Below, in pieces: positions 9,148 through 33,078 of a stretch of 64,000 nucleotides of DNA (position 1 is its first letter; every line of letters begins with the position of its first letter). A program made the translations under genes and the position numbers. Where the stretch lies: positions 1,280,001 through 1,344,000 of the forward strand of contig CBDESU010000002.1 in assembly GCA_965242695.1 (NCBI GenBank), given 5' to 3'. Source of the DNA: Cenarchaeum sp. (GTDB lineage: Archaea > Thermoproteota > Nitrososphaeria > Nitrososphaerales > Nitrosopumilaceae). Under the pieces are notes generated by a model, which was not told the DNA's origin, did not search any database, and worked only from the letters and a program-made list of their open reading frames with translations.

Positions 9148-9257
9148 CGCAGTCGTACCCGTAGGACTTGTACCCGTCTCGGTCGCCGGCGATCTACCTT
9201 TGCCCCACGGATGTACACGTCTGTCTCTTTTAGCATTATAGTGCGCGGCGGAGAAAA

Positions 9258-9293: not shown

Positions 9294-9355
9294 GCCCGAT
9301 CCTGCACACGCGGCGCGCTGGGTTTTGGCGGCACATTCGTACACATGATATGTAA

Positions 9356-11355: not shown

Positions 11356-11376
11356 AGCCTACGGCGATTTGGGCAT

Positions 11377-11388
11377 TATATTAAGATA
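11377..11388 (-). promoter_or_regulatory. TATA-box-like element for the two-gene island operon
   Basis: Minus strand reads TCTTAATATAAT ~25-30 nt upstream of the GTG at 11355. Confidence 0.5.
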
Positions 11389-11540
11389 TGCCTTATGTAG
11401 AGTGGATCCTGTCGCCGCGCCCATGTTCGAGCCGGCTTTGCACCTGCCTCGCCGCCGGCCTGCCAGCACCGTATCCAGATCGCGCGTGGCTTGCTACGCG
11501 GGCAGCCGGCTGGTTGGCGTCTATCGCTTAGTCTACCATT

Positions 11541-11569
11541 ATGCAGATCTGCATTATGCAGATCTGCAT
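11541..11569. promoter_or_regulatory. Tandem perfect palindrome ATGCAGATCTGCAT-T-ATGCAGATCTGCAT, candidate operator
   Basis: Two 14-bp perfect palindromes (11541-11554, 11556-11569) just upstream of TATA-like GTATAAAT (11581-11588) of the ATPase gene. Confidence 0.6.
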
Positions 11570-11611
11570 TATTCTTTAATGTATAAATAATGCCCCGGCC
11601 CCGATCCACCA

Positions 11612-12799: not shown

Positions 12800-12841
12800 G
12801 CGCCGAAGCGCCCCCTTGATGCGGGAGCTCCTGTAGGGCGC

Positions 12842-15644: not shown

Positions 15645-18600
15645 TTACTCGATAAACAGGGCGGGCCTGAGCGGCCTGGCATGGCGCGACCTGCCGGCCG
15701 GATCGTCGATGCCCTCGTCATCCTCGGAAAAGACCCTGACCTGGACGCCCTCGCCGAACTCGGCTGCCGCTAGCGCGCCCAGGTCTGCCTCTAGGACGGC
15801 CCGCTCGTCTAGCCCGCCGCCGCCCCGCAGCCTGGCCTCCCTGGTGCGCGCAGGCTCGGCCAGGGCGTCCTTTATGGCGCGCTGCACAAAGCCGGGGTCG
15901 GACTTTATGCCGGCCGTCTCGGGGTCGGCGATGAGCGCCTGCATGACGGCGCCCATGCTGGCGCCGGCGGCGCCCTTCTTGCTTCCCTGCGGAGCCTTCC
16001 CCCCGCCGCTTCCCCCCGCCGCTCCTTCCCCTTCCATCATCCCGAGTATGGTCCTGTACGCCCTGGCCTTGAGGCCGCCTGCCACGTACGCCGTGATCCT
16101 CTTGGGGGCGCTCTTCATCTTCGTGACCCTCTTGATGCTCGCGACGTCGTCGATGACGCGGCCGAGAAGGTCCTCGGCCTGCGCTGCCGCGGGGTCGTCC
16201 CATTCGGCTGGCGGCTCGGGCCACCGCGCCGCCGAGGCCGTCCCCTCCATGCCGAGCCTCTCCCACATCTCGTCGGCCGCATGCGGGGCGAACGGCGAGA
16301 GCAGCAGCACGCGCACGGCGTACACCTCGCGGAGGATGGCGTCTTGATCGCCGCCTGTTGCGCCTCCCCCGTGCGCCTCCCTTGCCGCCCTCCTCTTGCG
16401 GTGCCACTGCAGGTCTGATTCGAAGGAAAACAGGGCCGTGTGGAGCGCCTCGCGAAGCCTCATCTTCTCGATCGAAGACGTCACGTCGAGGGCTAGGCCG
16501 CGCGCGCGAGAGAGCAGCCAGCGGTCCTCGGCGGTCCTCGGAGCGCCGTCCCTGCCAGGCCCGCCCCTGCCGCCGAGCCTCCCGCACTCGGCCATCATGG
16601 CGCCGAGCCTCGAGGCGACGCCGGACACGGCCTCCTGCCCAAAGTCGGCATCCTGCAGGAGCTCGGCCGAGACTAGTATGGCCAGGCGTATAGTGTCGGC
16701 GCCGTGCTCGGCGATGGCCCTGCGGAGGGGTATGATGTTTCCCATGCTCTTTGACATCTTCTTGCCGTCCATGAGGACGGACCCGTTCACGACGATCCCG
16801 CGCGGCCAGCTGTCGCGCCCGAATATCGCCGTGTGGTTCATGACGAAGAACGTCAGGTGGTTCGGGACGAGGTCCCTGCCAGAGTGCCTCGCGTCGACGG
16901 GGTAAAAGTAGGCAAACTCGGCCCTCGCACGGCGCACGGCGCCGGCGTCGGCCCCGGTCTCGCGCGCAATCCTCTCGGCCGGGTCGCCCCCTCCCCCTCC
17001 GCCTGCCCCTATTCCCAGGAACACGTAGTCGAAGAACGCCGGGGTGAGGTGCTCGGCGCGCAGCGCCCCCGACCCGACCAGCCCCGCTATCGTATAGAAC
17101 GCCATGTACACGACCGAGTCGGACAGGCTCTCGACTATCCACCCGTCGTCCCACGGCAGGTTCGTTCCCAGCCCGTGCTGCCTGGCGCACGCCCTCTCGC
17201 GCAGCCAGTCGACGACGTTGTCGAACTCGCCGCGCAGGTCGGCAGGGAGGATGCGCATGCGCGAGAGGCACTCGTGGGCGTTGGCCTTCCACGCCGCGTT
17301 GCCGTAGTCGAGGAACCACTGGTCGGAGAGCATCCTGACGACGCACTCTGCGCCGCACCTGCACCTGACGGGCCCCCCGCTGATCTCGAGGAACGGCTCC
17401 GAGGCGTCCTGGCCGGCCGGCAGCCCGTCGGACAGCCACTTGCCCACCGCATCCCTGGCGTCGGGCACCTTCATGCCCGCGAACCTGGCCGGCACGGGGG
17501 ATGCGGCGCCCCCGCCCGCGCCGATCATCGCCCCGCCGTAGAACTCCTTGCCGTACACTTCGTCGGTCGCCTTGTCCAGGAGATCGGTCTCTTCCTGGCC
17601 CCTGATGCCGAGCCGTCCGCACGCCTCGGCCGCCGGGCACTCGGCTTCTCCGTACTCCTTGGACTCGATGATCCTGACGGGGCGGGGCGCGCCGAGGGCC
17701 GCCGCATCGCCGGCCTCCCTGAGGTCCTCTAGGGCGCGCCAGTCGTACGGCGCGTGCGCCGGTACCGACATGACCATTCCGGTGCCCGTCCCCTGCTTGA
17801 CAAACTTTGCCGGCAGGATCGGCAGGCCCGCCGCGCCGGTGCCGGGCGCGGCCGCCGTGCGCCCGACAAGGTCGGCGCCGCGCACCGTCCCCGTCCGCTC
17901 GACCCTCCTGCCGAGGAACTCTAGCTTGCGCGCGCACTCGGCCGAGACGATCCACTCCTCGGCCTCCTCGCCGCCGTCCTCCCCGGCCCCTGCCCCCGGG
18001 CGGCGTGGACCGCCAGACACGGAGGCCCTGACGTACTCTGCATTCGGGTCTACCCACAGGTTTGTCACGCCGAACAGCGTCTCGGGGCGCAGCGTCGCCG
18101 CCGGGATCACGGACCCGCCGGCATCGCCGCCCCCGTCCAGCCTGAACTTGACTAGCGTGTACTCGGTAAAGCCCGGCTCTACGTCGCCGAGCGTGTCGTG
18201 CTGCGAGACGGGGTTTTGGTCCTTTGGGCACCACCCGACGGGGTGCGAGCCCTGCACGACGAGCCCCATTCCGCGCAGCGTCCCTATCTGCCACTCGACG
18301 AACCTCTTGTACGCGGGATCGATCGTCGTAAACTCGCGCCGCCAGTCTATCGAGTAGCCCATCTCGATCATGCCGGCCTTGATCTCCTCGTGGAAGTAGT
18401 CGGCGATCCTCACGGGGTCCGAAAACTCCCGGACCGCCTCGTCGGGCACCCCGTACAGTCCCTTCAGCCCGGCAAGCAGCTCGGCATCCCCGTCCTGCAC
18501 GCGCCTTGCCATGCCGAGTATGGGGGTGCCCGTGTAGTGGAACCCCATCGGGAACAGCACGTTGTGCCCCCGCATGCGCAGGTACCTCGCATGCGCGTCG

Positions 18601-18824
18601 GCTATTGTATACGTGCGGCCGTGCCCCACGTGCTGCGGCGAGTTCGGGTAGGGGTACGCGACCGTGACGAACCTCTTGGGCCTGGACGGGTCGGCGTCGG
18701 CCTCGTGGGCCTTGGACTCCTCCCACCTCTTCCTCCACTTGGCCTCGATCGGGGCCCAGTCTATGCGGGCGCCCCCCGCGCCGCCCTCCGAGCCTCCCGC
18801 GCCGGGATCGTGCGCCCGGCTCAC
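15645..18824 (-). CDS. leuS: Leucine--tRNA ligase (archaeal type)
   Basis: 'VAYPYPNSPQHVGH' (HIGH), 'ATLRPET', editing 'GTGMVMSVPAHAPYD', 'IVESLSDS', 'KMSKS'. Start GTG at 18824 overlaps the upstream TGA (GTGA); the ORF-track 5' extension is a shadow. Confidence 0.97.
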   Translation of the reverse strand: MSRAHDPGAGGSEGGAGGARIDWAPIEAKWRKRWEESKAHEADADPSRPKRFVTVAYPYPNSPQHVGHGRTYTIADAHARYLRMRGHNVLFPMGFHYTGTPILGMARRVQDGDAELLAGLKGLYGVPDEAVREFSDPVRIADYFHEEIKAGMIEMGYSIDWRREFTTIDPAYKRFVEWQIGTLRGMGLVVQGSHPVGWCPKDQNPVSQHDTLGDVEPGFTEYTLVKFRLDGGGDAGGSVIPAATLRPETLFGVTNLWVDPNAEYVRASVSGGPRRPGAGAGEDGGEEAEEWIVSAECARKLEFLGRRVERTGTVRGADLVGRTAAAPGTGAAGLPILPAKFVKQGTGTGMVMSVPAHAPYDWRALEDLREAGDAAALGAPRPVRIIESKEYGEAECPAAEACGRLGIRGQEETDLLDKATDEVYGKEFYGGAMIGAGGGAASPVPARFAGMKVPDARDAVGKWLSDGLPAGQDASEPFLEISGGPVRCRCGAECVVRMLSDQWFLDYGNAAWKANAHECLSRMRILPADLRGEFDNVVDWLRERACARQHGLGTNLPWDDGWIVESLSDSVVYMAFYTIAGLVGSGALRAEHLTPAFFDYVFLGIGAGGGGGGDPAERIARETGADAGAVRRARAEFAYFYPVDARHSGRDLVPNHLTFFVMNHTAIFGRDSWPRGIVVNGSVLMDGKKMSKSMGNIIPLRRAIAEHGADTIRLAILVSAELLQDADFGQEAVSGVASRLGAMMAECGRLGGRGGPGRDGAPRTAEDRWLLSRARGLALDVTSSIEKMRLREALHTALFSFESDLQWHRKRRAAREAHGGGATGGDQDAILREVYAVRVLLLSPFAPHAADEMWERLGMEGTASAARWPEPPAEWDDPAAAQAEDLLGRVIDDVASIKRVTKMKSAPKRITAYVAGGLKARAYRTILGMMEGEGAAGGSGGGKAPQGSKKGAAGASMGAVMQALIADPETAGIKSDPGFVQRAIKDALAEPARTREARLRGGGGLDERAVLEADLGALAAAEFGEGVQVRVFSEDDEGIDDPAGRSRHARPLRPALFIE

Positions 18825-19453
18825 TTCGTCAGCACCTCCAGCGCCGCAGTTCTGACCTTTTCCGCCCTCGACTCGTCCAGGCCGCTGGCCTGCGCAAACG
18901 ATGCGCCGCCGCCCTTGTCGGGCCGGCCGCCGCCGGCCTTGGCCACCTTGCGCATGAACTGGTATGCGTCCTCGCCGGACCATGGGCCCGCGTACGCGAC
19001 GGCCCCGAGCGCCAGGCCGCCCGTGAATGTGCCGCAGTACAGCGCGGCGGGATCCCTTGCGACAAGCTTCCTGCCGAACCTGTCGTGGAACGTCCTGTCG
19101 AGATCGTCGCTGCCGATGCACATGCGGCGCCCGTCGAGCGTCTTGACGGCAAACCCGCTGAATCCGACCACGCACCCGTCCGGCGCGGTCATGACCCTCC
19201 TGAGGATGCGGCGCCCGGTGATCGTTTCCGCCACGCCCTGCCCCCCCTCGCCCGTCGAGACGGTCCTTTCCCTGTCCCAGAAGGACGGCCTGCCGCCGTC
19301 CCCCTCCACCAGCCTCCGCCCCGCGCGCCGCCTGTCGGCCAGGTTTGCCGACCTTGTATCGCTGTCCCACTTTTCGGCCGCCGCCTGTATCTCTTCGTGC
19401 GTCGGCCCGCGTGACTCGGCGGCATCCCCGCCCCTCTGCCATGGAAACCTCAA
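18821..19453 (-). CDS. Stand-alone C-Ala/DHHA1-like protein, paralogous to the C-terminus of the adjacent AlaRS
   Basis: Aligns by eye to the AlaRS C-terminus: DGRRMC/DGRRAC, TFHDRFGRKLVARDP/TFHVEFGRRLVEADP, YCGTF/YCGVF, VAYAGPWSG/VAYAGPESG, GGGASFAQ/GGGARFAQ. TTGA and GTGA overlaps with both neighbours. Confidence 0.85.
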   Translation of the reverse strand: MRFPWQRGGDAAESRGPTHEEIQAAAEKWDSDTRSANLADRRRAGRRLVEGDGGRPSFWDRERTVSTGEGGQGVAETITGRRILRRVMTAPDGCVVGFSGFAVKTLDGRRMCIGSDDLDRTFHDRFGRKLVARDPAALYCGTFTGGLALGAVAYAGPWSGEDAYQFMRKVAKAGGGRPDKGGGASFAQASGLDESRAEKVRTAALEVLTK

Positions 19454-22293
19454 CGCAGCACCGCCTCCCTTGCTGCATCGACGGCCTCTTTTTTCCTAGA
19501 GGCGTCCTTGCAGCCGCCCTGCGCGAACCGCGCGCCGCCGCCCCCTGACCCGCCGGCGGCCCCTGCCACGTCCCGCACGATCCCGGACGCGTCCCTGCCC
19601 GACTCGGGCCCCGCGTACGCGACGATCCTGACCGTGCGGCCCTCGCCGAACACGCCGCAGTACGACGCGCCTGGGTCGGCCTCTACGAGGCGCCTCCCGA
19701 ACTCTACATGGAACGTCTCGCCCAGGCCGTCCCCCCCGGCCACGCATGCCCTGCGCCCGTCCCGCACCCGCACCTCGATCCCGTCCAGCCTCGACGACTC
19801 CCCCTCGGGGACGGCCATCGCCTCCTCCAGCATGCCGGGCACGCGCCGCTTGTCGGCCTGCCGGGCCTCGGCCCTGGCCCTGTCGCGCTCGGCCTTTGCC
19901 TCCTCGGCCTTTGCCTCCTCGGCCCTTGCGGCCTCCGTCTCTTCCTCTTCTCCGCCCCCTGCCCCGGGGCCTGTCACGAACTCGAGTCGGACGACCCCGT
20001 CCTGTATGCGCTTGGCCCTCGTGATCCTCAGGGCCTCGACCTGGCCGGTCCGCCCGACATGGGTGCCGCCGCACGCCTCAGAGTCTATGTCGCCTATCGA
20101 GACGATCCGCACCGAGCTGACGGGGACGACGCCTCCCTGGTATATGCGAAAGCCGTACTCGCGCTCGGCCGCGCCCCTGTCCAGGCTGCGTATTGCGACG
20201 GCGTAGTCGGCCCGTATGATCGAGTTTGCCGCGTCCTGGATGCGCCCGACCTCTTCGGGCGTCAGCGGCGAGTGGTGCGTCACGTCGAGCCTGGCGTGGT
20301 CCTCGTCCTTGAACGCCGAGTGCTGCCACACCCAGGAGCCGAGGATGGAGCGGGCCGACGCGTTGAGTATGTGCGTGCCGGTGTGGTTGCGCGTTATGGC
20401 GGCCCGCCTTTCGACGTCGACCGTACAGCGGACGGTCCCGCCCCTTCCCCACCCCTTGATATCCTCGTAGCCTGGCAGGAACCTGGCCGTGCCGCACGGC
20501 CTCGCGTCCTCGTCGGCCAGCGCCCCGGCGTTCCCCTCGACGGTATGCACGACGATGCCGCCGTGCCTTGACACGTCCGTCACGCGGAGGCCCCCGATCG
20601 CGCCGCGGTCGGGCTCCTGCCCGCCGCCCCTTGCGTAGAACGACGTCCTGTCGAGCACGACGCTGGATCCGCCTGCCCACAGCACCTGCGCGTCAAACTC
20701 CATGGGGTCGTCGCCGTAGAAGAGCAGCTCTGTATCGGGCAGCGAGGCGACGGGCACGCCGTACGGCGCCTCTTTCCCGCCGCCGGCCCCCTGCGCGCCG
20801 CGCCGGCCGGGCCCCCGCAGCTCGGCGAGCCTCGTGTAGAACGCGGGCGGCACCTCGGCTATGACGCCGGCCTCCAGCAGGTAGTCGGGCGTGACGCCGT
20901 CGGACTCGTACAGGGTGATCAGCTCGGACACGGACGGCTGCCTAGCCTTGACCCCTTCCGCCCCATTCCCGCCGGACATCTTGGCCGCAATCTTCTCGAT
21001 GCGCCGCCGCGACTGCCCGTACCGCCCCACCTCTATGCCGAGTATGCGCTTTACGTCGCCGCCGGCCTCGGCCAGCTCGGGGTACGTGCGCGACAGGTAG
21101 CCGACGTGCAGGTCGACCATCTCGTCGATGTCGAGCGCGCCGCCCGTACCGCCCCGCCCCCCGAGCCTGCCGGCCGTGTCGACGATGCGGCGCAGCATCA
21201 TGCGCAGGTTGTACCCGCCGCCGACGTTGCTCGGCAGGGCGCCGTCGGCGATGGCAAAGACGAGCGTCCGGATATGGTCGGCGATCATGTATGCGGCCTC
21301 TAGCGGCGCGATGCTCCTGCGCACGTCGGCCTCGGACAGGCCGGCGGCCCGGGCCGCCGCAAGCCTTGCCTTTTGCAGGTCGCCTCCGTGCTCGTCGGCC
21401 GCCCGGGCGACGGCGGCAAAGTACGCGCGGGCCGCCTCCGATCCGGCGTCGGCGCCTAGGGCCTCGGCGGCGCGCGCCGCGACCGGACCAAAGCAGCAGT
21501 CGTACGCCGTCGGCGTGCCCATCGTTATCCACGAGAGGCGCTCCAGGCCGGCGCCCATGTCGATGACCCTGCGGTCGAGCTGCTCGTGCTCGCCGAGGCG
21601 GCCCTGGAACTCGGTGAATACGGCGTTGCCGAGCTCTAGGCCCCTCACAAAGTACTCTAGGGACGGGCCGAACGAGCCGCCGCCCTCCCACACGTCCTCT
21701 ACGTACACGATCTCGTCGCGGGGTATGCCGAACGGGCCGGTCAGCATCGCGTGGTCGAGGCGGACGCACTCGTCCTTCCAGTACCCGCCCGGCTCGTCCG
21801 GGACGGCGTGCTGGCCGACCATGCAGAACGACGAAAAGTGCCTTCCCGTGACCCCAACGTTCTCTAGGTCCTTGAAGCGCAGGCACGTCTGCGGGACGAC
21901 GAGCGGGTTTGCGGGGAACTCGAAGACGACCCTTGATCCCATCACGCGCTGAAAGTCGACGATGCTAGCGATCGTAAAGTGCAGGTCCTCGCGCCACCTG
22001 CACACGACGGGGTAGCGCTGGACTGGCGTGTGGCCGTTTGACGAGAAGAACGACTCGATCTCGGACCACGCGGCGGCGTAGTCGAGGCGCCTTGCCGTCG
22101 GCGGGTCGCCGATGAACGAGTACGCCGAGGCGCGGTCGTGGTCGGGGCACAGGTCCCTCGGCGTGGCGGACCAGAAGAACCGACCGCACCTGGCGCAGGC
22201 GGCGCGCGCAAACCCCTCGTCCCCGAACAGGCCCACCCTGTAGTACCTGTCCGGCTCTGACGAGAACTCGGCGAGCAGCTCGGACTTTTCCAC
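19450..22293 (-). CDS. alaS: Alanine--tRNA ligase
   Basis: 'RYPVVCRWR..FTIASIVDFQ', 'GLELGNAVF', 'DMGAGLERL', 'ADHIRTL', editing 'NHTGTH' and 'EACGGTH', C-terminal 'GGGARFAQGG'. Confidence 0.97.
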   Translation of the reverse strand: MEKSELLAEFSSEPDRYYRVGLFGDEGFARAACARCGRFFWSATPRDLCPDHDRASAYSFIGDPPTARRLDYAAAWSEIESFFSSNGHTPVQRYPVVCRWREDLHFTIASIVDFQRVMGSRVVFEFPANPLVVPQTCLRFKDLENVGVTGRHFSSFCMVGQHAVPDEPGGYWKDECVRLDHAMLTGPFGIPRDEIVYVEDVWEGGGSFGPSLEYFVRGLELGNAVFTEFQGRLGEHEQLDRRVIDMGAGLERLSWITMGTPTAYDCCFGPVAARAAEALGADAGSEAARAYFAAVARAADEHGGDLQKARLAAARAAGLSEADVRRSIAPLEAAYMIADHIRTLVFAIADGALPSNVGGGYNLRMMLRRIVDTAGRLGGRGGTGGALDIDEMVDLHVGYLSRTYPELAEAGGDVKRILGIEVGRYGQSRRRIEKIAAKMSGGNGAEGVKARQPSVSELITLYESDGVTPDYLLEAGVIAEVPPAFYTRLAELRGPGRRGAQGAGGGKEAPYGVPVASLPDTELLFYGDDPMEFDAQVLWAGGSSVVLDRTSFYARGGGQEPDRGAIGGLRVTDVSRHGGIVVHTVEGNAGALADEDARPCGTARFLPGYEDIKGWGRGGTVRCTVDVERRAAITRNHTGTHILNASARSILGSWVWQHSAFKDEDHARLDVTHHSPLTPEEVGRIQDAANSIIRADYAVAIRSLDRGAAEREYGFRIYQGGVVPVSSVRIVSIGDIDSEACGGTHVGRTGQVEALRITRAKRIQDGVVRLEFVTGPGAGGGEEEETEAARAEEAKAEEAKAERDRARAEARQADKRRVPGMLEEAMAVPEGESSRLDGIEVRVRDGRRACVAGGDGLGETFHVEFGRRLVEADPGASYCGVFGEGRTVRIVAYAGPESGRDASGIVRDVAGAAGGSGGGGARFAQGGCKDASRKKEAVDAAREAVLR

Positions 22294-22416
22294 GCCGCCG
22301 CCGCCCCGGGCCGGGGGTTAAAAGATAACCGCCGGCGCGGCCCCGTTGCGGGGCCGCCGCGCGGCGCGCTGCCCTGAATCTTGATATTGGGCCGGCGCGG
22401 CGGCCGGCCCGCAGCG

Positions 22417-22623
22417 TTGCCGGTAAAGATATTCAGCGGGGTCGACTATATCGTCGAAAAGTCGGTGAACCGCTTTGTAAAGGACGTCCGCGTCCTCGAC
22501 GTGCGCGTGTCCTCGCACGCGCACAAGGACTCGTCGCGCGTCACGGTCCTGATCCTGTACGAGGGAGGCGAGAACCTGCCGGCCCACGCGTCGGGGCCGG
22601 GGCTGGGCGGCCCGACGGTGTAG
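22417..22623 (+). CDS. Small hypothetical protein
   Basis: MPVKIFSGVDYIVEKSVNRF... has protein-like composition and host codon bias; TTG start inferred. Confidence 0.6.
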   Translation: MPVKIFSGVDYIVEKSVNRFVKDVRVLDVRVSSHAHKDSSRVTVLILYEGGENLPAHASGPGLGGPTV

Positions 22624-23049
22624 GCGCGATGCAGGCGCGGCGGCCTCTGCCTCTACCGCTGTCCTTGCGGCGGGACTGCAGTGGGAGCGCGCCGCCGCCT
22701 ACGCCGGGCCCGCCTGGCCGCATCCGCGCCTGCGCCGAGCCGCGCATTAGGCTCCGGGCGCCGCTCCTGCACCCGCGCATCTGCCGCCGATCGGGCCGTT
22801 GGATGCCATGGCGCCATCGGCCGTGGCCGTTTGACGCATGCGGCATGCCGGGGCGCCTTGGCCCTGCAAGGATGTGGCCCAGCCTGCGCGCCTGGCCGCC
22901 GCCTGCGCGTCCCGGGCGGCTCCCGCGCCGCGCATCTGTCCGCGTCCGGCAGGGGCGCATCCTGCATGGCACTCGCTGCTCGAATCGGCGCGCCGCGCGG
23001 CCAAGATGTCGCCTCGCAGGTTTTATAACCCCCCTGCGGGTGGGCAGGT

Positions 23050-23142
23050 CGGCGACGGCGGGAGTCGAACCCGCATAGCACTTGGTGTGTCAAGTGCCGG
23101 CGTGCTCTGAACACGCTGGGCTACCGATTGCCCATCGTCGCC
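23050..23142 (-). tRNA. Atypical type II tRNA, anticodon CAG (nominally Leu), G73 discriminator, long variable arm
   Basis: Hand-folded cloverleaf: GGCGACG/CGTCGCC acceptor, GGGC/GCCC D-stem, GCGTG-TTCAGAG-CACGC anticodon arm, GGCACTTG/CAAGTGCT variable stem, GCGGG-TTCGACT-CCCGC T-arm. Confidence 0.85.
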
Positions 23143-23516
23143 ATTTCTAATGAAAAGTGCAGTCTAATGTACCTTCATAGCAGGTAATATGCGGTCTATT
23201 GTACAGTCCATCGCACCTGGGTTCACGGGTTGCGTGCCCCCGCCTGCCTCGTCCGCGCCGGCACCCCCGTCTGCCGATGCGGATGCACGGCTGGTCGCCC
23301 CCCCCGTCGCGGTTGCACCTCGCGGCTCGCCATGCGCGGACATGCGCGCGCTTGCTACCGCTCCGCACGCGGGCTAGGATGCCCCCGCCGCGCATCTCCG
23401 AACTCCCTCCGGATGTGCCGCGTCGCGCCGCATCCACCATTCCTGGGACGCCGCCGGGCCGGCAGTCCATGTAAGGCGCCCCCTATCAATAAATACCGCG
23501 GCCGTCCCGCAACGCC

Positions 23517-24041
23517 GTGTTTGGCCGCAAGCCGTCGGGGTGGCGCGAGGGCGTCCACGTGTTCACTACGAGGCCCAACGGGGACTACAGCGACTTTGTG
23601 TTCGGGATGGTCACCGGGGTCGACGGCGACCGCCTCGGGATCAACGGCGTCGCCGTAAGCCCCGTCGGGCTGCGCAACAAGGTCGAGCAGGGCAAGGCGG
23701 GCCCCAGGTCTGGCGAGATACTCGCGCACCCGACGGCCGACAACTGCATATTCGCGCTCATCTACCGCGTCGAGCAGGACGACTTTACAGAGGTCGTCGA
23801 CGCGTCAAAGTCGCGCGTCGAGATGATCTCCCCAAAGGCGTACGCCGTCCTCGACGGCTGGGTGCGCGAGGAGCTGCCCGAGATGATCAACCGCGTGCTG
23901 TCGCTGCCGCCGGGGCCCGAACGCGAGGCGGCAAGGCGCACCCTCAAGCAAAAGAGCGACACGCTGCTCGACAAGGACCTCAGGCGCAGCCTGTACTCGG
24001 TGTGCCGGAGCCTCAAGATACTCGACGGGCAGGGGGGGTAG
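23517..24041 (+). CDS. Hypothetical protein
   Basis: 174-aa ORF with host codon bias; TATA-like AATAAATA ~25 nt upstream. Confidence 0.8.
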   Translation: MFGRKPSGWREGVHVFTTRPNGDYSDFVFGMVTGVDGDRLGINGVAVSPVGLRNKVEQGKAGPRSGEILAHPTADNCIFALIYRVEQDDFTEVVDASKSRVEMISPKAYAVLDGWVREELPEMINRVLSLPPGPEREAARRTLKQKSDTLLDKDLRRSLYSVCRSLKILDGQGG

Positions 24042-24102
24042 GCGGTGCGGCGAGCCGCGCCGCGGCGCCGCTCCGGCGAGCCGCGCCGCACTGCGCGGGG
24101 CG

Positions 24103-26899
24103 GTGGCGCAATTGGCGGTACTTGAGGACGGCGTCGCGCGCAGGCTGCGCGATTTGCTGCGCTCAAGGGGACTTGATGCCGACTTGCAGGCGGGGGAGGG
24201 CCCGGGGCGCGCAGGCCTGCTCGTCACCCATGATCGCAGGAAGATTGCCATAGAGTGCGAGATGGACGGGCCTGGCAAGAAGAGGCAGGCCGTCGGGGAT
24301 GCGGCCAGAATACTCGCGCCTGTGAGGCGCGCCGACGCGGCGTTTGCCGTCATCTTCCCGCCAAAGTGCTCCGAAAAGACGCTGTTCCACGACACGGTGC
24401 TGGGGGCCAGCGTTGTGGACGACTACGTGGCAGGGGCCTGGCAGGACTGCCCCGCACCCGGAGCAGGAGGTCCCGGGGAGCAGGGCGGCGCCCCTGCGCG
24501 GGTCCGGTGGTCCAAATGCACCGTGGCAGAGCTGGCCGACCGCATACGCGACGTGCACAACGACATGGGAGATCCGGACACGATCGCCGGCAGGCTCCGC
24601 GACGCGGTCGACGATGCCGCCGGCCTGCTCTCGGACGACGAGTGCTGGGGTCTTGGCTCGGGCGCCGGGTTCAAGCCGCGCAAGGACGACTGGCGGCCGG
24701 CCGCGCGCCGGGCCCTGCTCGCAATCGCGTCGGCCTCGCTACTGCATGCCTGGCTCGACCCGCGCCTCCAGGACATGAGGCCCACGACCGACGCGCGCAC
24801 GGGCAGAAGGTTCAGGGGCCCGTGGAACCCCGAAAGCCTCGACGAATGCTACCGCTCCGGCGACGCACGGGAGAGCCTGTCCGAAGCGTGGTCGCTGATC
24901 CTGGCCATCGACTACAAGCCGATATTCGAGATGGGCTTGGCGGCGCTTGCGTCGCTTTACGGCGAGTCGTTTGAGCGTGCCGTGAGAATCGTCGTGAACT
25001 GGTCCCGGTATGCGGCCGGCCAGGCCGTCGAGAGGCGCCACGACATTCTCGGCCGCGTATTCGGCGCACTGCTGGACGATGCGCAGTTCGACGGCTCGTT
25101 CTACACCTCCGTTCCCGCTGCAACGCTGCTGGCCGGCCTTGCCATCCCCAGCGCGCCGGCCCGAAAGGATCTCAAGTCGCTTCGCGTCCTGGATCCCGCA
25201 TGCGGCACGGGGACGCTGCTCATGGCCGCGGCCGAAAGGCTCCGCGGCGCGTCCGGCGGTGATGACGGCCGCATGCGCCTGATCGTGAATGCACTGGAGG
25301 GACTGGACATCAACACGACAGCCCTGAAAATTGCGACCACGACGCTTGGGATGCTGTTGGCTACGGCCAAGTTCGACGACATGAACCTGTACCAGATGCC
25401 CCTCGGCGTGGTAGAGGGGACATCCAAGGTGGCCACCGGATCGCTCGAGCTGTACGCGCACGGGGGCCTGCTTCCGTTCATCGAATGGCCCAATGCGAGG
25501 CCGCCGGGCCGGATCGACGCGGATGCGGGGACGATCGAGCACCGGTACGCGTACTCGGCGGACCTCGTCATCATGAACCCTCCGTACACCCGCAACGACA
25601 AGAGGCACGACCAGCTAGGCGAGGACGTCGAGGCGCGCGTCAAGAAGAGGGAGTCGGAGATACTGGCCATGTCGCCTGTCCGGCTGGACAGGACCAGGGG
25701 CTGATGTTCCTAGTGCTCGGCGAGTACCTCTGCAGCAGGACGGGGACGCTGGCCTGCGTCTTCCCCCTCTCGTCGGCGACGGCGCCGTCGGCGCGAGGCG
25801 TCCGCGCGTTCCTGGCCGAGCGCTTTGACATAGAGTACCTGGTCGCATCGCACGATCCCGACAGGGAGTACTTTTCGGAGAATACGACCATTGCCGAGCT
25901 GCTCCTGGTAATGAGGCGGAAGGGGCGCAGGGGCGGCGGCGGAGGCGCGGCGGCGGAGGCGCGGCGGCGGCGGGGGGTGCCCGCGCCCGCAAGCCGACCG
26001 TCGTCATCAACCTGCTTGAAAATCCGTCCACGGCCGGCGGGGCGGCCGCCCTAGCGGCCGACATCGCCGCCGGCCGGCCGAGCCCGCTCGCGGCGATCGA
26101 CACCGTGTCTGCCGAGCCTGCCGCCGCAGGCGACTGGGGAAGAGTGCTGTTCGTATCACCGCTCCTGCACCGCGTGAGCGAGGACATGGAGGCGGGGCGC
26201 CTCTTCGAGATGGCCAGGCTCGGAGACTTGGCCGACATCGGGTGCGGCAGGGGCGTGCGGGGGTGCTTTGACTCCCGCCAGAGCCCCGACAAGGGCGCGC
26301 GCGCCTCGATGTACGGCCACGACACGTCAAGGGTCGTGAGCATCGAGAACAGGCCGTACTCCTACCTGATTCCCAAGAAGGGCATGGAGGCCAGCGCGGA
26401 CAGGGTCTGGTCCGGGGCGTCGCACCTGCTCTTTCCGGAAAAGCTTCGCCTCAACCTGTCCCACGTGACGGCGGTGTGCTCGCCGGACGAGACTGTGGGA
26501 ACCTCGTGGTACAACGTGCGGCCGCGGGCGGGAGGCGCCGCCGAGCGCCTGCGGTGGTCAAAGGCCATGGCCGTGTTCCTCAACTCGACGCCCGGCATCG
26601 TCGCGGTCCTGGGCATGCGCATACCGACGGTCCTGTCTAGGCCGAGGTTTTCGAGCGCCGGCGCAAAGGGCATGCGGGTGCCGCTCCTCTCGGACGGGCA
26701 GGCCGGGGCGCTGGCGGGAGCGTACAAGAGGCATGCTAGCAGGCCGATCGGACGGTTTGCCGAGCCGGACGACCCCGTCCGGCGCGGCATCGACGATGCC
26801 GTCTCGTCCGCACTGGACATCCCGGGCGGGACGGTGGGGCGCATGAGGTGCGAGCTGGCAAAAGAGCCGATGTGCACCGGCAGGCGGTACGGGGCGTAG
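24103..26899 (+). pseudogene. Type IIG-like fused restriction endonuclease/N6-adenine methyltransferase, split by two frameshifts
   Basis: N-terminal nuclease-like 'IAIECE', 'GSFYT', motif I 'VLDPACGTGTLL', motif IV 'IMNPPY'. Continues in a second frame ('GTLACVFP..FSENTTIAELLLVMRR') from ~25700 and a third frame ('PTVVINL...') from ~25990 to the stop at 26899. Confidence 0.8.
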
Positions 26900-27007
26900 G
26901 ATCCGCCGCCCTGCACGGCTCTGGCCCGTGAGAATGCCCGCCTCGCACTCCCCCGGATCGCGCCCCCGCCTCCACGGTTTAAAGCGGCCCGCGCCGCGAG
27001 CGCATGC

Positions 27008-28162
27008 GTGGACGGAGGCGCATCGAGTGGCGCCAGCGGCGGCGACTTTACGGTCACCCCGTGGGGCGTGAGCGGCGAGATCGACTACGACCGCCTGATC
27101 GAGCGGTTCGGGACGGAGCGCATGACGGACGGGCTGAGGGGCCGCGTGCGCCGCGCCGCCGGCGAGGACCACTTCATGCTGCGCCGCGGCGTCTTCTTCT
27201 CGCACCGCGACCTCGGGCGCATCCTCGACGTGCACGAGTCCGGCGGCCGGTTCTTCCTGTACACGGGGCGCGGCCCGTCGGGGCGCACGCACGTGGGCCA
27301 CCTCCTGCCGTGGGTGTTTGCAAAGTGGCTGCAGGACAGGTTCGGCGTGCGCATGTACTTTCAGCTGACCGACGACGAAAAGTTCTTCTCAAAGCCGGGC
27401 CTGTCGCTCGAGCAGACGACCTCTCTCGCCTACGAGAACGCGCTCGACTTTGCCGCCCTCGGGTTCGATCCCGCCCGCACGCGCATCATAGTGGACACGC
27501 GCGACATCGCCCGCCTGTACCCCATTGCGGCGCAGGTCGCAAAGCGCATCAACTACTCGAACACAAGGGCCGTGTTCGGGTTTACGGGCGAGACCAACGT
27601 CGGCATGATATTCTACACGTCGCTGCAGTCTGCGCCGTGCTTTGTCGAGGACGCGCCGGTCCTCATACCGCTCGGCGTCGACCAGGATCCCCACTTTAGG
27701 CTCACGCGGGACGTGGCGCCGAGGATCGGCAGGCCCAAGCCGGCCCTCGTCCACAATATGATGATGCCGGCCCTGCAGGGGCCAGGCGGCAAGATGTCCG
27801 CGTCCGACGAGAACGGGGCCGTGTACACGACGGACGCGCCGGCGGCGGTCAGAAAGAAGATCAACAAGCATGCGTTCTCCGGCGGGCAGCCGGACATCGA
27901 GGCGCACCGCCGGCTCGGAGGCAACCCCGACGTGGACGTGTCGTACCAGTACCTGCGCATGTTCTTCGAGCCGTCGGACGCGCGCCTCGAAAAGATCAGG
28001 GACGGGTACGTGTCGGGGGCGCTCACGACGGGCGAGCTAAAGGCCGAGCTGATCGACCGGATAAACCGGTTTGCCGAGGCGCACGCCGAGCGGCGCGAGG
28101 CGGCGCGGGACCGCCTCGGCGAGTACATGCCCGAAGAGGGATCAAAGGAGTGGTGGCCGTGA
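27008..28162 (+). CDS. trpS: Tryptophan--tRNA ligase
   Basis: 'FTVTPW', 'LYTGRGPSG..HVGH', 'GVDQDPHFRLTRD', 'KMSAS', 'AFSGGQ'. Confidence 0.97.
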   Translation: MDGGASSGASGGDFTVTPWGVSGEIDYDRLIERFGTERMTDGLRGRVRRAAGEDHFMLRRGVFFSHRDLGRILDVHESGGRFFLYTGRGPSGRTHVGHLLPWVFAKWLQDRFGVRMYFQLTDDEKFFSKPGLSLEQTTSLAYENALDFAALGFDPARTRIIVDTRDIARLYPIAAQVAKRINYSNTRAVFGFTGETNVGMIFYTSLQSAPCFVEDAPVLIPLGVDQDPHFRLTRDVAPRIGRPKPALVHNMMMPALQGPGGKMSASDENGAVYTTDAPAAVRKKINKHAFSGGQPDIEAHRRLGGNPDVDVSYQYLRMFFEPSDARLEKIRDGYVSGALTTGELKAELIDRINRFAEAHAERREAARDRLGEYMPEEGSKEWWP

Positions 28163-28539
28163 ACGGGGACGGCGATGCTGCGGATGCGGCCGCCGCCGGC
28201 ATCGCGGTCAGGGTACGGTGCCGCGACGCGTACGAGGCCCTCAAGCTAGCGAGCCTTGCGTACCCGCACGACGGGCGCGCGCGGGAGGGCGGCGCGTTTG
28301 CCACAGAGGTCGTCTCGGCGTACGGCGAGGAGATCGTGCTGTCGCTGCGCGACGGGTCGGCGCACAGCGTAATGCTCGCCGACGCCGGGCAGGTCGAGAT
28401 GCTCGCCGACTTTATGCAGTCGGTCTCGGACGGCGAGCACGCGATCGCCGGCGCCGAGGCGGCCGGCGCGTCCGTCTCGCTTGCAAAGTCGGCCCAGCCG
28501 GGAGCCGGCCCCGCGCCCGCGGGCGGCGGCGGGGCGTAG
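28150..28539 (+). CDS. Hypothetical protein
   Basis: ORF overlaps the trpS end (alternative GTG at 28159); host codon bias. Confidence 0.7.
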   Translation: MVAVNGDGDAADAAAAGIAVRVRCRDAYEALKLASLAYPHDGRAREGGAFATEVVSAYGEEIVLSLRDGSAHSVMLADAGQVEMLADFMQSVSDGEHAIAGAEAAGASVSLAKSAQPGAGPAPAGGGGA

Positions 28540-28586
28540 GCGCGGCAGGCCGGGAAGGGCCGGCGCCTGCGCGGCGCCCCCGCCGG

Positions 28587-28931
28587 CTAGACGAGGCCCC
28601 TGTCGACCTCGGACTCGACAGACTCCTGCACCTTCAAAAAGTACAGGCGCGTCGAGTAGGGCATCTGGTCCATGCGGTTGTCGATGGCGACCATCAGGTA
28701 CCTGACGGCCCTCTTGGACACCCTCAGGTGGAACTGCAGCGTCATTATCGGGTCGCGCCTGACCGATATCTTGTCCTGCAGCCACGGCGGGGCCATCTCG
28801 ACGGCGTCGGCGACGACCGTGTCGTACCATGACGCGATGTTGTCCGGATCAAGGCCCTCCTTGAGGGCGCCGACCTCCCCGTCGAGCCTCCTGAGCATGC
28901 GCGCTGACAGGTCCCAGTCCACGACTGGCAT
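28587..28931 (-). CDS. Hypothetical protein
   Basis: 114-aa ORF with normal composition, co-oriented with the upstream gene run. Confidence 0.75.
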   Translation of the reverse strand: MPVVDWDLSARMLRRLDGEVGALKEGLDPDNIASWYDTVVADAVEMAPPWLQDKISVRRDPIMTLQFHLRVSKRAVRYLMVAIDNRMDQMPYSTRLYFLKVQESVESEVDRGLV

Positions 28932-28958
28932 GCGCGCTCCGCGCCACTACGCGCCTTG

Positions 28959-29453
28959 TCAGATCCGGCTGCCCTGCTTGTCAAGTATTCTGCCCTCGCG
29001 GTCGATCTCGCCGGCGCGTATGCGGGTGGTCGAGATGCGCGCGCCGTCGCGCGCCCTTACCATCGGGACGACGACGACCTCGACGGGCGGCAGGCCGGCC
29101 TCGGCGCGCAGCCCGTTGAGGACGGCCCCCTGCGGCTCGGTCTCGGCGCTCACGACGAGCGCGCCGACGCGCCGCTCGAGGACGGCCGGCCCGAACACGT
29201 CGTCGAGCCGGCTGATCTCGCACCGCCTGCCGGGGTACCTAGAGGACGCGAGGGCCCCGACGGCGGCGCTCCTCTCGGCGTACGTCAGGGCCGGCGACTT
29301 GCCCCGCCTGGAGGCGAGCCCGTCGCCGGCCACCCCGACTATGACGCGCCCGGCGACCCCGAAGGCGCGGTCGAGCAGGGCCGTGTGGCCCCTGTGTATG
29401 ACGTCGAATGTGCCGCCGGTTGCGGCAGTGTCGAACCGCGGCGCGGCCCCCAT
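28959..29453 (-). CDS. coaD: Phosphopantetheine adenylyltransferase (archaeal type)
   Basis: 'GGTFDVIHRGH', 'LVVSAET', 'ISTTRIRAGEID'. Confidence 0.9.
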   Translation of the reverse strand: MGAAPRFDTAATGGTFDVIHRGHTALLDRAFGVAGRVIVGVAGDGLASRRGKSPALTYAERSAAVGALASSRYPGRRCEISRLDDVFGPAVLERRVGALVVSAETEPQGAVLNGLRAEAGLPPVEVVVVPMVRARDGARISTTRIRAGEIDREGRILDKQGSRI

Positions 29454-29489
29454 CCGTCGTCTCCTCCCAGCTGGGGCCCACGGGCGCCG

Positions 29490-30722
29490 TCAGCCGCCCG
29501 AGACGAGGACGAGCACGACGGGTCCCCTCGATGCGAGCGGCGAGTTGTCGCTGTCCCACACGAACGTCTCGACAAAGTACAGGCCCTCCTCGTCCGGAGT
29601 CCACTCGACGGACGGCGACGCCGTCCCCGGCCCGTCGAACCTGCCGCCGCTGGACCCGAGGAACTCGACGGACGGCGAGTCGCCCGACCTCTTTACCTGG
29701 ACGTAAAAGGTGTACTCCTGCGCGCCCTCCTGCGCCGACGGCAGGGACTCGAGGGACAGGTCGCCGGCGACGACGAGCGGCGATCCCTCCCTGCCGCCCT
29801 GCACGCGGTTGCCGTCGGCGTCGGACAGGTGGGCGCCGCCGATTGTGACGCGGCGCGACACGGGGTCGGCCTGCGCAATGGGCACGTCGGCGGTGTTCGA
29901 GCTGGCGCCGGGCGACTCGGCGAACAGGTGCACGCCGTCGGCGCGCACGAGCAGCGCATCGTCGATGGAGAACTCGGCCGATGCGCCGGCCTCCAGGGGG
30001 CCCTCCAGGGCGGCCGATGCGTGGCGGAGCAGCCGCGGCGGGTCGAACGCGTCGTACTGGAGCATGTGGATTGTGACGTGGCCCTCGGCGGGCGAGCCGG
30101 GGGGCGCTGCGTTCGAGATCGTCCCTGCCACGGCGAGCCTGTCGGCGCGCGGGCCCTCTTCGTCCCCGCCGCCCTGCGCCGCGACGGCCGCAGTTCCACC
30201 GACTGCCAGCGTGCGCGGCTTTTCGTCGGCATAGTTGAAGCCGAGGATCGTCACTGTGGCGTCGGTAATGGCCGCGCTCGGACTCTCCGAGGATATCGCA
30301 AAGGGAGCGGTCCCGCCGGCGGGCACGACGCCTGCCAGGGTCGTGCCGATCGCCGTCTCGACCGGCTCGTCGCCGGATGCGCCGTAAAAGCCGACCCTGA
30401 CCTTTACGCCCGAGACGGCAAACGAGTTGGTGTTGACGACCTGCCCGACGACGGATGTCCGGCCCTCGCTGTCCTTGTAGTGGTGCGGCGGCGTGTCCGC
30501 AAGGCGGACGCCGAGGGTAGGCAGCGTGTCGGCGGCCTGCGCCCAGGCGCCGGCGATTGCGCCGGGCCCGCCGGCCGCAAAGCCGTCCCCCGTGCCGGCG
30601 CCCGGCGCGGGCGCCTCCCACGCCGCCGGCGCCCACGCGCCGGCCAGTGCCGCCGCGGCGCAGCCTGCGGCAAGGACCGCCGCGAGCGGGATCCGCCGGC
30701 CTGTGTGCGCGCCTCCCACCAT
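29490..30722 (-). CDS. Secreted protein with FxLYD-like Ig domains
   Basis: Signal peptide; 'VVGQVVN..VKVRVGFYG..VPAGGTAPF'; C-terminal 'WTPDEEGLYFVETFVW'. Confidence 0.75.
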   Translation of the reverse strand: MVGGAHTGRRIPLAAVLAAGCAAAALAGAWAPAAWEAPAPGAGTGDGFAAGGPGAIAGAWAQAADTLPTLGVRLADTPPHHYKDSEGRTSVVGQVVNTNSFAVSGVKVRVGFYGASGDEPVETAIGTTLAGVVPAGGTAPFAISSESPSAAITDATVTILGFNYADEKPRTLAVGGTAAVAAQGGGDEEGPRADRLAVAGTISNAAPPGSPAEGHVTIHMLQYDAFDPPRLLRHASAALEGPLEAGASAEFSIDDALLVRADGVHLFAESPGASSNTADVPIAQADPVSRRVTIGGAHLSDADGNRVQGGREGSPLVVAGDLSLESLPSAQEGAQEYTFYVQVKRSGDSPSVEFLGSSGGRFDGPGTASPSVEWTPDEEGLYFVETFVWDSDNSPLASRGPVVLVLVSGG

Positions 30723-30803
30723 GGCCCCGCCAGTGCGCGGTGGTTAATTTGTATAGCGCACCCCGGGCGGGCCCAGGCCCCCAAACCGCGCCGCCCGCCG
30801 GCG

Positions 30804-31550
30804 TCACCTGCCAGGCGCCCGGGGCGCCGCGCCGATGCCGAGCTCGGCGCGCCAGTTGGCGTAGAACATCTCCATGTTCCGCCCGATGTCCGCCTCGGCC
30901 GCCGCCTCGCCGGCCCCGCCTCGGCCCCCCTCGGCGGCAAGCCATCCGCGCGCCGTCGGGCCGTCTGCCTCTAGGTGGAACTGCACCCCGACTGCGCTGC
31001 CAACGCGCAGCGCCTGGTTTGCGTACGATTCGGACCGGGCCAGCCGCACCGCGCCGTCCGGCAGGTCGAACGTCTCGCCGTGCAGGTGCAGGGCGCGGAA
31101 CGGATCGCCCATGCCGGCGAACATGCGCCTGCCCTCGAGGCCGACGGGGCGGAGGTCGCCGTAGTATCCTGCCTCCCGCACGCGCCCCCTGCGCACGGCG
31201 CCCCCGAACGCCCTTGCGATCAGCTGCGCGCCCAGGCACACGCCGAGCACGGGAATGCCGGCCCGCACGCACCCCCTGATCATTTCCTCCTCGGCGCGCA
31301 GGGCGGGCAGCGGATCGTTTGCGCTCTCCGGCGCGCCGAGCACGACGAGGACGTCGCCCCAGCCCAGGTCTCCGGCGCCCCCGCCGGCCGCTGCTGTTGC
31401 TGCCGCCGCCGCCAGGCCCGCAAGCCTCCCGTCATTCTCCCATGCGCGCACGACATCGATGCTGTACCCGTCGGCGCCGAGCAGGGCGGTCAGGCGGCCG
31501 GGGCCCTCGGCGGCCGAGTTTTGCAGCACGACGGCCCTGCGGGGATGCAC
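30804..31550 (-). CDS. Type 1 glutamine amidotransferase domain protein
   Basis: 'PVLGVCLGAQL' nucleophile elbow; 'GVQFHLE' His-Glu. Confidence 0.9.
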   Translation of the reverse strand: MHPRRAVVLQNSAAEGPGRLTALLGADGYSIDVVRAWENDGRLAGLAAAAATAAAGGGAGDLGWGDVLVVLGAPESANDPLPALRAEEEMIRGCVRAGIPVLGVCLGAQLIARAFGGAVRRGRVREAGYYGDLRPVGLEGRRMFAGMGDPFRALHLHGETFDLPDGAVRLARSESYANQALRVGSAVGVQFHLEADGPTARGWLAAEGGRGGAGEAAAEADIGRNMEMFYANWRAELGIGAAPRAPGR

Positions 31551-31631
31551 GCCAGTGCCCGCCGCCTGGCAGATAAAAGCGCCCGCATGCGCCGGCAGTA
31601 GCAGCGTCGGCGGGCGCCGCCGCGTAACTCC

Positions 31632-32906: not shown

Positions 32907-33078
32907 ATGCCGGCGCGCCTAACATGGCGGTTATAAGTGATCCTATGGGGGGATCCGCCCGCGCGGGGGGGGGGGTGCGGGGAACGAGGCGCCGCCGCCG
33001 CGGGCGCCCGTCACGGCAGGGGCAGGATGGGGGGGGGGCGCGGGAGCGTGGGATGGGCAGAGGGCGGAGCCTGCCTCG

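Follow-up and report, generated by a model that had tools for sequence, protein, structure and literature searches.

A 64,000-nt stretch of the genome of a Cenarchaeum sp. (Nitrosopumilaceae; GenBank assembly GCA_965242695.1, contig CBDESU010000002.1, positions 1,280,001 to 1,344,000; hereafter the window) contains, on its minus strand at 23050..23142, an intact gene for a structurally non-canonical class-II transfer RNA (tRNA) with the anticodon CAG. The gene is supernumerary to a conserved canonical tRNA-Leu(CAG) and belongs to a dispersed family of 11 copies, with NAG or GAU anticodons, apparent promoters of their own and non-syntenic sites in two sister genomes, a family that a preliminary description of this locus had not mentioned. 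Our comparisons suggest that these tRNAs are expressed and dispersing, and that they are charged regardless of anticodon and serve either as missense decoders or as aminoacyl donors off the ribosome. We assign this reading a probability of roughly 0.55.

ARAGORN called three minus-strand tRNAs in the window: tRNA-Leu(cag) at 23047-23143, within which G1 to G73 occupy exactly 23050-23142, a tRNA-Trp with an intron at 43716-43808, and tRNA-Ser(gct) at 48429-48515. The first of these agrees in every structural detail with the preliminary description. Its acceptor stem has 7 bp, all Watson-Crick, followed by A8 and U9; the D stem GGGC/GCCC, which one U:A pair could lengthen, closes an ordinary 8-nt loop with GG; the anticodon stem has 5 bp; and a 5-bp T stem with the loop UUCGACU precedes the discriminator G73. 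The anticodon loop (23105..23111, minus strand) reads UUCAGAG, with U33, C34 A35 G36 and A37. The variable (V) region, 25 nt at 23075..23099 on the minus strand, consists of 1 nt, an 8-bp stem with one G.U pair, a 6-nt A/C-rich loop and 2 nt, as delimited by fold and alignment. The predicted fold (-51.3 kcal/mol) is far more stable than those of shuffled sequences (-33.4 +/- 3.65 kcal/mol; z = -4.9; none of 200 shuffles equalled it), and the minimum-energy structure is the cloverleaf, in which the preceding U(-1) also pairs with G73 and lengthens the acceptor stem to 8 bp. The preliminary description had allowed that the extra arm might be spliced out as an intron; inspection rules this out because the arm is a continuous, covarying 8-bp helix with a 6-nt loop and has neither a bulge-helix-bulge motif nor 3-nt bulges.

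General models recognize this molecule poorly. A covariance model (R1) built from all 11 family copies scores the window copy at 111.4 bits, and the general tRNA model of Rfam did not report it at the gathering score. In a relaxed-threshold search, its best Rfam family was tRNA-Sec (selenocysteine tRNA, RF01852) at 37.5 bits, with a gathering cut-off of 47; other family copies scored 36.9-38.5 bits with the same model, also below the cut-off. The tRNA-Sec relic that had been proposed for this gene can nevertheless be dismissed, given an anticodon other than UCA, an ordinary D arm, the sub-cut-off Rfam score, and the lack of any match to SepSecS (PF05889) in a genome that is 96% complete.

That genome (G000) comprises 3.89 Mb in two contigs (C1 and C2 in the coordinates below) with 67-68% G+C, and its alanyl-tRNA synthetase (AlaRS) is 52-58% identical to those of 80 Nitrosopumilaceae/Nitrosopumilus records, in agreement with the assignment to Nitrososphaerota in the preliminary description. 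Whole-genome ARAGORN found canonical tRNA-Leu genes with the anticodons CAG, UAG, GAG and CAA (85-99 nt, A73 and G37 in all) and made no call for tRNA-Leu(UAA). Four tRNA-Ser genes are present (G73 in 4/4, A37 in the three without introns), as is a canonical tRNA-Ile(GAU) with a 14-nt intron. Host V arms are shorter than that of the window copy, with a V region of 13-14 nt in tRNA-Leu and V stems of 4-5 bp in tRNA-Ser. A search for a second, canonical tRNA-Leu(CAG), suggested in the preliminary description, located one at C2:158451-158535; it has A73 and G37 and is conserved in the four other genus genomes (98, 96, 95 and 95% identity). This rules out the window gene as the only CAG tRNA of the cell. 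ARAGORN run in intron mode on the same genome reported 108 'tRNAs', mostly spurious, and calls of 93-100 nt at C1:492108-492206, C1:1147966-1148058 and C1:1633203-1633302 (Asp, Thr and Pro) look false, being GC-rich and probably coding.

BLAST of the window tRNA against 41 related genomes, its own included, gave matches in only two, with four copies in G000 and seven in its closest congener (G004; 3.7 Mb; AlaRS 82% identical to that of G000). Besides the window copy, G000 carries a tandem pair 83 nt apart, C1:407284-407378 (CAG) and C1:407461-407555 (UAG), and a GAU copy at C2:62099-62192; G004 carries two UAG, two GAG, two AAG and one GAU copy, the last at C1:72043-72132 of that genome. A twelfth ARAGORN call (GGC) at one family locus was dropped as a GC-rich false positive. 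Members score 99-117 bits with R1, and the next best sequences in five genus genomes 33.6-35.5 bits. The shared body has the acceptor sequence GGCGACG, A8, a 4-5-bp D stem with an 8-nt GG loop, A15:U48, an 8-bp V stem, the T loop UUCGACU and G73 (in 10/11 copies). Acceptor, D and T arms are near-invariant, and most variation falls in two loops, that of the anticodon and the V loop, the second of which differs in nearly every copy. Standard pairs make up 98.2% of pair cells across the 11 copies (cloverleaf plus the extra U.G and U:A pairs), a share that drops to 33-56% when the 3' partners are slid by 1-3 columns, and all four G000 copies are fully paired. Covariation, which rests on two pairs only, involves 27:43 (G:C in five copies, C:G in six) and one V-stem pair (A:U in four, G:C in four, A.C in three). 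Because the two genomes are related, such family counts are not independent.

The anticodons follow a narrow pattern: A is invariant at position 35, any of the four bases occurs at position 34, and position 36 has G in nine copies and U in two. Position 37 is A in 9/11 copies and G in the other two, both in G004. Each GAU copy differs at 2-3 positions from the copies of its own genome, versus 5 positions from the other GAU copy. The GAU copies therefore either originated independently or underwent concerted evolution with the anticodon retained, and either history hints that the anticodon matters. The anticodon of the family thus appears to be constrained.

Conservation extends well beyond the tRNA (window positions in this paragraph are on the minus strand). 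An A-rich leader (23143..23150) ends in U(-1), which is present in 11/11 copies and could pair with G73 in 10/11. Upstream of it, a putative B recognition element (BRE)/TATA promoter, GGTACATTAGAC, stands out by block conservation at 23162..23173, about 20-31 nt upstream of G1, and the family alignment has an AAA(A/G)GGTATAAA-type block about 20-35 nt upstream. Alignment of the 11 flanks also revealed a TACCGTA-type motif near -65, which in several copies is the perfect palindrome TATACCGTATA and in the window (23183..23197) a degenerate form of it; it might act as an operator. On the 3' side, the trailer contains a short GC-rich hairpin (23033..23048) whose sequence varies by copy though each copy can form it. 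A conserved block follows about 25-40 nt downstream of the tRNA (TTATAAAACCTGCGAGG at 23012..23028), with a TATAAA that is invariant in 11/11 copies and a CCTGCG-like sequence after it; this block is possibly an outward-facing promoter directed towards the open reading frame (ORF) at 22972 and alaS. Beyond the hairpin, no conserved fold of the 3' flank was found, nor any conserved protein downstream of the units.

Mean pairwise identity is 0.88 in the tRNA body, 0.90 in the leader, 0.69 in the TATAAA block and 0.62 in the BRE/TATA block, compared with 0.56 in the trailer and 0.39 in the TATA-to-leader spacer; outside the unit it falls to about 0.3. Since body and signals were kept while the spacers diverged, the copies must be old enough for unconstrained positions to have saturated. 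Canonical tRNA genes of G000 have the same type of element (e.g. CAAGG, then TTAAAT or TATATAA), equally far from the mature 5' end, so it is natural to infer that the family copies are transcribed from a native-type archaeal promoter. The family is unlike canonical tRNA genes in its AT-rich leader, the absence of an encoded CCA and the absence of a T-run after the gene. One copy (C1a) has no BRE/TATA of its own and sits 55 nt behind the TATAAA of another (C1b).

The preliminary description correctly placed the window gene upstream of alaS and leuS. Both are on the same strand: alaS (19450..22293; Pfam tRNA-synt_2c, E = 4.5e-64) is the next large gene downstream, and leuS (15645..18740; Pfam) is the sole leucyl-tRNA synthetase (LeuRS) gene of the genome, with one full copy by tblastn. 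None of 80 alaS loci of relatives has a tRNA within 4 kb, and the site is different in the congener; the alaS-leuS position is therefore not ancestral. The 864-nt segment with the whole unit (22612..23475) has no blastn counterpart at the syntenic site in G004, which holds 3.3 kb of other DNA, and the window flanks at 20511-22611 and 23476-32942 are syntenic with G004 at 81-87% identity. The tandem-pair locus, between a TrmB-like gene and thrS, spans 1.24 kb in G000 versus 92 nt in G004, and the GAU-copy locus 816 nt versus 482 nt. Indeed, no family locus is syntenic between the two genomes, and the neighbour genes differ at every locus, those in G004 including geranylgeranyl reductase with S3Ae, Nop5, Ppx with thymidylate kinase, methionyl-tRNA synthetase, a 2213-residue protein and an IS66 transposase. 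The units must therefore have been gained, lost or moved independently in both lineages. No terminal repeats, target duplications or associated recombinase (transposase or integrase) were found that would define the unit, and insertion borders cannot be set by comparing filled and empty sites, the intergenic DNA being too diverged. At three of the nine loci an aminoacyl-tRNA synthetase gene is found within 4 kb (alaS-leuS-trpS, thrS and metG), an adjacency that is suggestive, although the numbers are small.

Two loci have neighbours of some interest in themselves. In G004, two family copies flank the 2213-residue ORF, which has an EPTP-repeat match (L106:5918-12556; G004:C2, about 1572.9-1579.6 kb); the ORF begins some 150 nt past the first of them, and the IS66-family transposase lies a further 2.4 kb along. 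A repeated gene or element family is represented beside the GAU copy of G000 (L105:3274-4542; G000:C2, about 58.3-59.5 kb), where a stretch of about 0.6-1.2 kb is matched by more than 10 dispersed copies in G004 at 64-67% identity.

Outside these two genomes the family was not detected. The preliminary description had asked about conservation across the Nitrososphaerota: the covariance model unites 11 copies in two genomes, and BLAST found none in the 39 other relatives or in 400 further genomes sampled across the phylum (a sample that does not include G004). In pattern scans, the combined D-arm and T-loop pattern had no match in 185,579 species genomes or in viral contigs, and one match in metagenome contigs, a chance match in a coding-like region and not a tRNA; the D-arm 20-mer alone had none, and blastn against phage and plasmid collections returned no family match, although collections of this kind may lack entries for the source genome itself or for very close relatives. 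A 24-nt T-arm and acceptor string occurs in 18 stretches of bacterial genomes (Thermoleophilia, Acidobacteria and one Pseudomonadota). Fifteen of 19 such matches are ordinary class-I tRNA-Cys(GCA) or tRNA-Thr(CGU) and the other four are uncalled fragments, and we treat the resemblance as convergence of GC-rich stems, not homology. An extra TATAAAACCTGCG match at 9896-9908 of the window was set aside as chance; it lies in an AT-rich island and has no tRNA-like partner.

Which amino acid would these tRNAs carry? In this host, tRNA-Leu has A73/G37 and tRNA-Ser G73/A37, and the window copy, with G73, A37 and a long V arm, bears the Ser-type marks that the preliminary description had pointed out, G73 being present as well in the tRNA-Ser(GCU) of the window that it used for comparison. 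Of the features of canonical archaeal tRNA-Leu, the window copy has the Leu-box anticodon CAG and lacks A73, G37 and a host-type V arm; of those of tRNA-Ser, it has G73 and the long V arm, its 8-bp stem being longer than in host tRNA-Ser. Published work indicates that A73 and specific V-loop bases define archaeal Leu identity, that replacing A73 by G73 converts Leu identity to Ser, and that both bacterial-type and archaeal seryl-tRNA synthetase have a strong determinant in G73 (SerRS; PMC9976931). G000 has a single SerRS, of bacterial type (gene at C1:80701-80997), and a single LeuRS; no second LeuRS or SerRS that could be a dedicated partner was found in this genome. These identity marks make serine the more likely of the two predicted amino acids. 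As a charging outcome, serine leads, though at somewhat less than even odds; leucine on the one hand, and no charging or some other amino acid on the other, each appear possible but less probable, and about equally so.

We propose that a native-type BRE/TATA promoter of its own drives transcription of each copy, with a start a few nucleotides upstream in the A-rich leader, and that the transcript is then trimmed to the tRNA. Charging would be by a synthetase that ignores the anticodon, and the discriminator rule (G73 with a long V arm) makes SerRS a likelier candidate than LeuRS. The serylated product could misread CUN and AUY codons as a low-level or conditionally expressed missense decoder, or could donate its aminoacyl group off the ribosome, and the units would have spread to new intergenic sites independently in G000 and G004. 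A donor role in a non-ribosomal process, already raised in the preliminary description, gained no support from a search of G000, in which no cyclodipeptide synthase was found, other families of aminoacyl-tRNA-using enzymes not having been searched for.

A number of observations weigh against this proposal. Some concern identity. The determinant G30:C40, a weaker one for archaeal tRNA-Ser (PMC9976931), is absent, with U30:A40 in 11/11 copies. R1 leans only weakly towards host tRNA-Ser (41.8, 35.8, 26.7 and 25.2 bits) over host tRNA-Leu (30.5, 27.1, 26.9 and 19.7 bits), the score ranges overlap, and the family body resembles neither. The three NAG copies of G000 have an A directly after G73 (the base is C in G004); if U(-1).G73 forms an eighth acceptor pair, which is uncertain, this A would become their discriminator, a Leu-like one. 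Anticodons within the Leu box, or one step off it (GAG to GAU), would moreover fit a Leu-type amino acid better than serine. A serylated decoder would also be costly, because CUG and CUC dominate the Leu codons of alaS (CTG 32 plus CTC 21, together 53/59; ATC accounts for 25/39 Ile codons) and CTG occupies conserved Leu sites. In the AlaRS and LeuRS columns that 80% or more of the relatives conserve, CTG coincides with L at 36/49 sites, with I at 8/49, with other residues at 5/49 and with S at 0/49; CTC coincides with L at 31/34 and ATC with I at 31/35. Reassignment of CUG is ruled out by these counts, and the earlier view that CTG still means Leu is borne out.

Other observations concern the integrity of the family. 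Three G004 copies are damaged: a T-stem base is missing from one, the V arm of another is shortened, and the third combines C33, an acceptor mismatch and U73. Detection by Rfam is patchy, with the tRNA model above its cut-off for 3/11 copies and no Rfam match at E <= 0.001 for 5/11. The family also evolves faster than canonical tRNAs, its bodies being 82-93% identical to the window copy (0.88 in the pairwise mean), versus 98% for canonical tRNA-Leu(CAG) between the same genomes.

The alternative that survives these comparisons best, although we consider it doubtful, is that the copies are spare or back-up Leu (and Ile) decoders. LeuRS would charge them despite G73, or would read the A discriminator on an 8-bp acceptor stem, and they would supply extra CUG/CUC/AUC capacity or replace damaged canonical tRNAs; the GAU copies would insert Leu or use an anticodon-reading isoleucyl-tRNA synthetase. 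The restriction to NAG and GAU, with an invariant position 35 and a free position 34, is just such a 'synonymous' pattern, and the anticodons match the Leu and Ile codons most used in alaS. A15:U48 and G18G19, which are Leu elements in E. coli (PMC9976931), are present, the window copy lies upstream of leuS, and there is precedent in nematode nev-tRNA-Ile/Gly, which are leucylated (PMC3333845). The availability of an A after G73, with U(-1) able to pair, would serve this alternative in the three G000 NAG copies but not in G004 with its C, and the G37 of two G004 copies is set against A37 in the nine others, host tRNA-Leu having G37. Also against it are the G73 of 10/11 copies, A73 being universal in tRNA-Leu and found in all 115 nev-tRNAs (PMC3333845), and the unconserved V loop, of which archaeal LeuRS reads specific bases (PMC9976931). 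The body is unrelated to host tRNA-Leu (19.7-30.5 bits with R1), and the family is not tied to high GC, since a further genus genome (G002) is equally GC-rich (72% at alaS) yet has no copy.

Less probable again is a non-decoding tRNA-like RNA or a selfish cassette, composed of operator, promoter, tRNA-like gene, hairpin and outward TATA box. As a mobile or duplicating unit it would spread into intergenic DNA and function as a regulator or a decoy, or bring a portable promoter to genes lying downstream, here alaS-leuS. That the conserved unit exceeds the tRNA, with TATAAA in every copy, is consistent with this idea, as are the position of C1a behind the TATAAA of C1b and the non-synteny of all loci. 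Some loci also adjoin variable or defence-type genes (MmeI-like methyltransferase, ResIII/DEAD+HNH helicase, AAA_15/AAA_21 ATPase, IS66 transposase), and three of the nine loci have a synthetase gene nearby, although 6/9 loci lack such a neighbour. A further point in its favour is the possible 13-bp (8/5) acceptor-T helix. In tRNA-Sec biology, a helix of this form disfavours the elongation factor. Among bacterial allo-tRNAs, many with the anticodon UAU are translation-inactive and linked to transposons or toxin-antitoxin loci (PMC5389517). In the present family, however, no mobile-element gene or terminal feature delimits the unit (its junctions have diverged too far to be read), downstream proteins are not conserved, and the tertiary hallmarks of a tRNA (G18G19, the T loop and A15:U48) are kept together with the anticodon pattern, which a mere promoter carrier would not need. 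Decaying, functionless pseudogenes from an old duplication or foreign acquisition would explain the stem defects in G004, the copies that Rfam misses, the faster evolution and the narrow distribution, but are highly improbable given the full pairing of all G000 copies, a body identity of 0.88 against 0.3-0.4 in the spacers, compensatory changes in two stems, conserved promoter blocks, and retention of the family in two species whose coding DNA is 81-87% identical.

Returning to the proposal of an anticodon-blind missense decoder or donor, we found no archaeal case of such supernumerary, mismatched class-II tRNAs in the literature searched. Its closest analogues appear to be the bacterial allo-tRNAs, which are the nearest, and the nematode nev-tRNAs. 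As described by Mukai et al. (2017, PMC5389517), allo-tRNAs are likewise supernumerary class-II tRNAs first caught as near-misses of tRNA-Sec models, with a long V arm, G73 or U73, and anticodons (including Leu CUA/CUG) at odds with a presumed Ser identity, for which the same G73-based argument was made. Some of their copies are degenerate or near mobile or toxin-antitoxin genes, and their function is placed between missense suppression and regulatory RNA (PMC5389517). In contrast to the family described here, allo-tRNAs have a 12-bp acceptor/T branch (8/4 or 9/3), and their long D stem is Sec-like and capped by a tetraloop (PMC5389517); our copies have a 5-bp T stem in 10/11 cases, hence a 7/5 or 8/5 branch, and a D arm of 4-5 bp with an 8-nt loop. 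Allo-tRNAs are reported from Clostridia, Proteobacteria and Acidobacteria (PMC5389517), whereas our family is from Nitrosopumilaceae archaea, and pattern scans returned no sequence relatives.

Nematode nev-tRNAs (Hamashima et al. 2012, PMC3333845) are also multi-copy, lineage-specific V-arm tRNAs that exist alongside a complete canonical set, some of them with class-I anticodons; nev-tRNA-Ile is the counterpart of the two GAU copies rather than of the window copy. Their charging is blind to the anticodon (PMC3333845), as we predict for the present family. They differ in retaining A73 and the V-arm determinants of LeuRS and in being leucylated in vitro (PMC3333845), whereas our copies have G73 and an unconserved V loop; their anticodons target rare codons (PMC3333845), whereas ours match the commonest Leu and Ile codons; and they are eukaryotic, a review table listing none in Archaea or Bacteria as of 2014 (PMC4033280). 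The tRNA-Ser(CAG) of CTG-clade yeasts (PMC6041473, PMC2246281), likewise of class II and with G73, competes for CUG with its decoding as Leu, and offers what we regard as a functional parallel only: in those yeasts CUG is largely reassigned and the tRNA derives from tRNA-Ser, whereas here CTG stays Leu, the canonical tRNA-Leu(CAG) is kept and the body is unlike host tRNA-Ser or tRNA-Leu. With tRNA-Sec (RF01852; 8/5 in its bacterial form) the family shares its best Rfam match, G73, a very long V arm, the T loop UUCGACU, an A-U linker after the acceptor stem and possibly an 8/5 helix, but the D arm of tRNA-Sec has a 6-7-bp stem and a tetraloop, unlike the 4-5 bp and 8-nt GG loop here, and archaeal tRNA-Sec is 9/4 (PMC7609411).

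Some further features of the window stand apart from the tRNA. The element that had been left as an unnamed gene between alaS and leuS (18824-19494, minus strand) duplicates about 400 nt from the 3' end of alaS: a long ORF running into leuS contains a match, at 44% identity, to AlaRS residues 821-947, and 19094-19494 has no counterpart in G004. Its product may be a C-Ala/DHHA1-like domain that stands alone, or it may extend LeuRS at the N terminus. The stretch at about 9142-12837, AT-rich in a window of otherwise 68% G+C and without a counterpart at the syntenic G004 site, is probably a foreign island. An ORF with N6_Mtase/MmeI-type methyltransferase matches (24103-25704, plus strand) lies 1 kb from the tRNA, inside the block syntenic with G004. 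Three identical weak R1 matches on the plus strand (56195-56270, 57365-57440 and 58526-58601), about 1.16 kb apart, and a second set on the minus strand (56706/57867) point to a tandem repeat of about 1.16 kb. In the tRNA-Trp(CCA) at 43716-43808, 24 nt are inserted after the anticodon loop, where archaeal tRNA-Trp usually has its intron.

A bolder form of our proposal, which we consider unlikely, is regulated ambiguous decoding in two Nitrosopumilaceae: self-dispersing, promoter-bearing tRNAs of Ser identity would read the most abundant Leu (CUN) and Ile (AUY) codons under the control of the upstream palindrome, producing a statistical proteome or poisoning translation under stress or infection. 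If true, it would give Archaea their first natural missense-decoding tRNA system, and would make this the first family of tRNA genes to spread as a cassette with its own and an outward promoter. New in any case are a family that aims at the commonest Leu and Ile codons of its host, with an apparent promoter for each copy and sites that differ in two sister genomes, and a cloverleaf that falls outside the definition of allo-tRNAs and is unlike the tRNAs of the host. As a compact archaeal tRNA body, perhaps foreign to the host synthetases, it is also a candidate orthogonal chassis. The family raises questions of how far archaea tolerate or use mistranslation, how new tRNA genes spread, and how class-II tRNAs may escape or switch between Leu and Ser identity.

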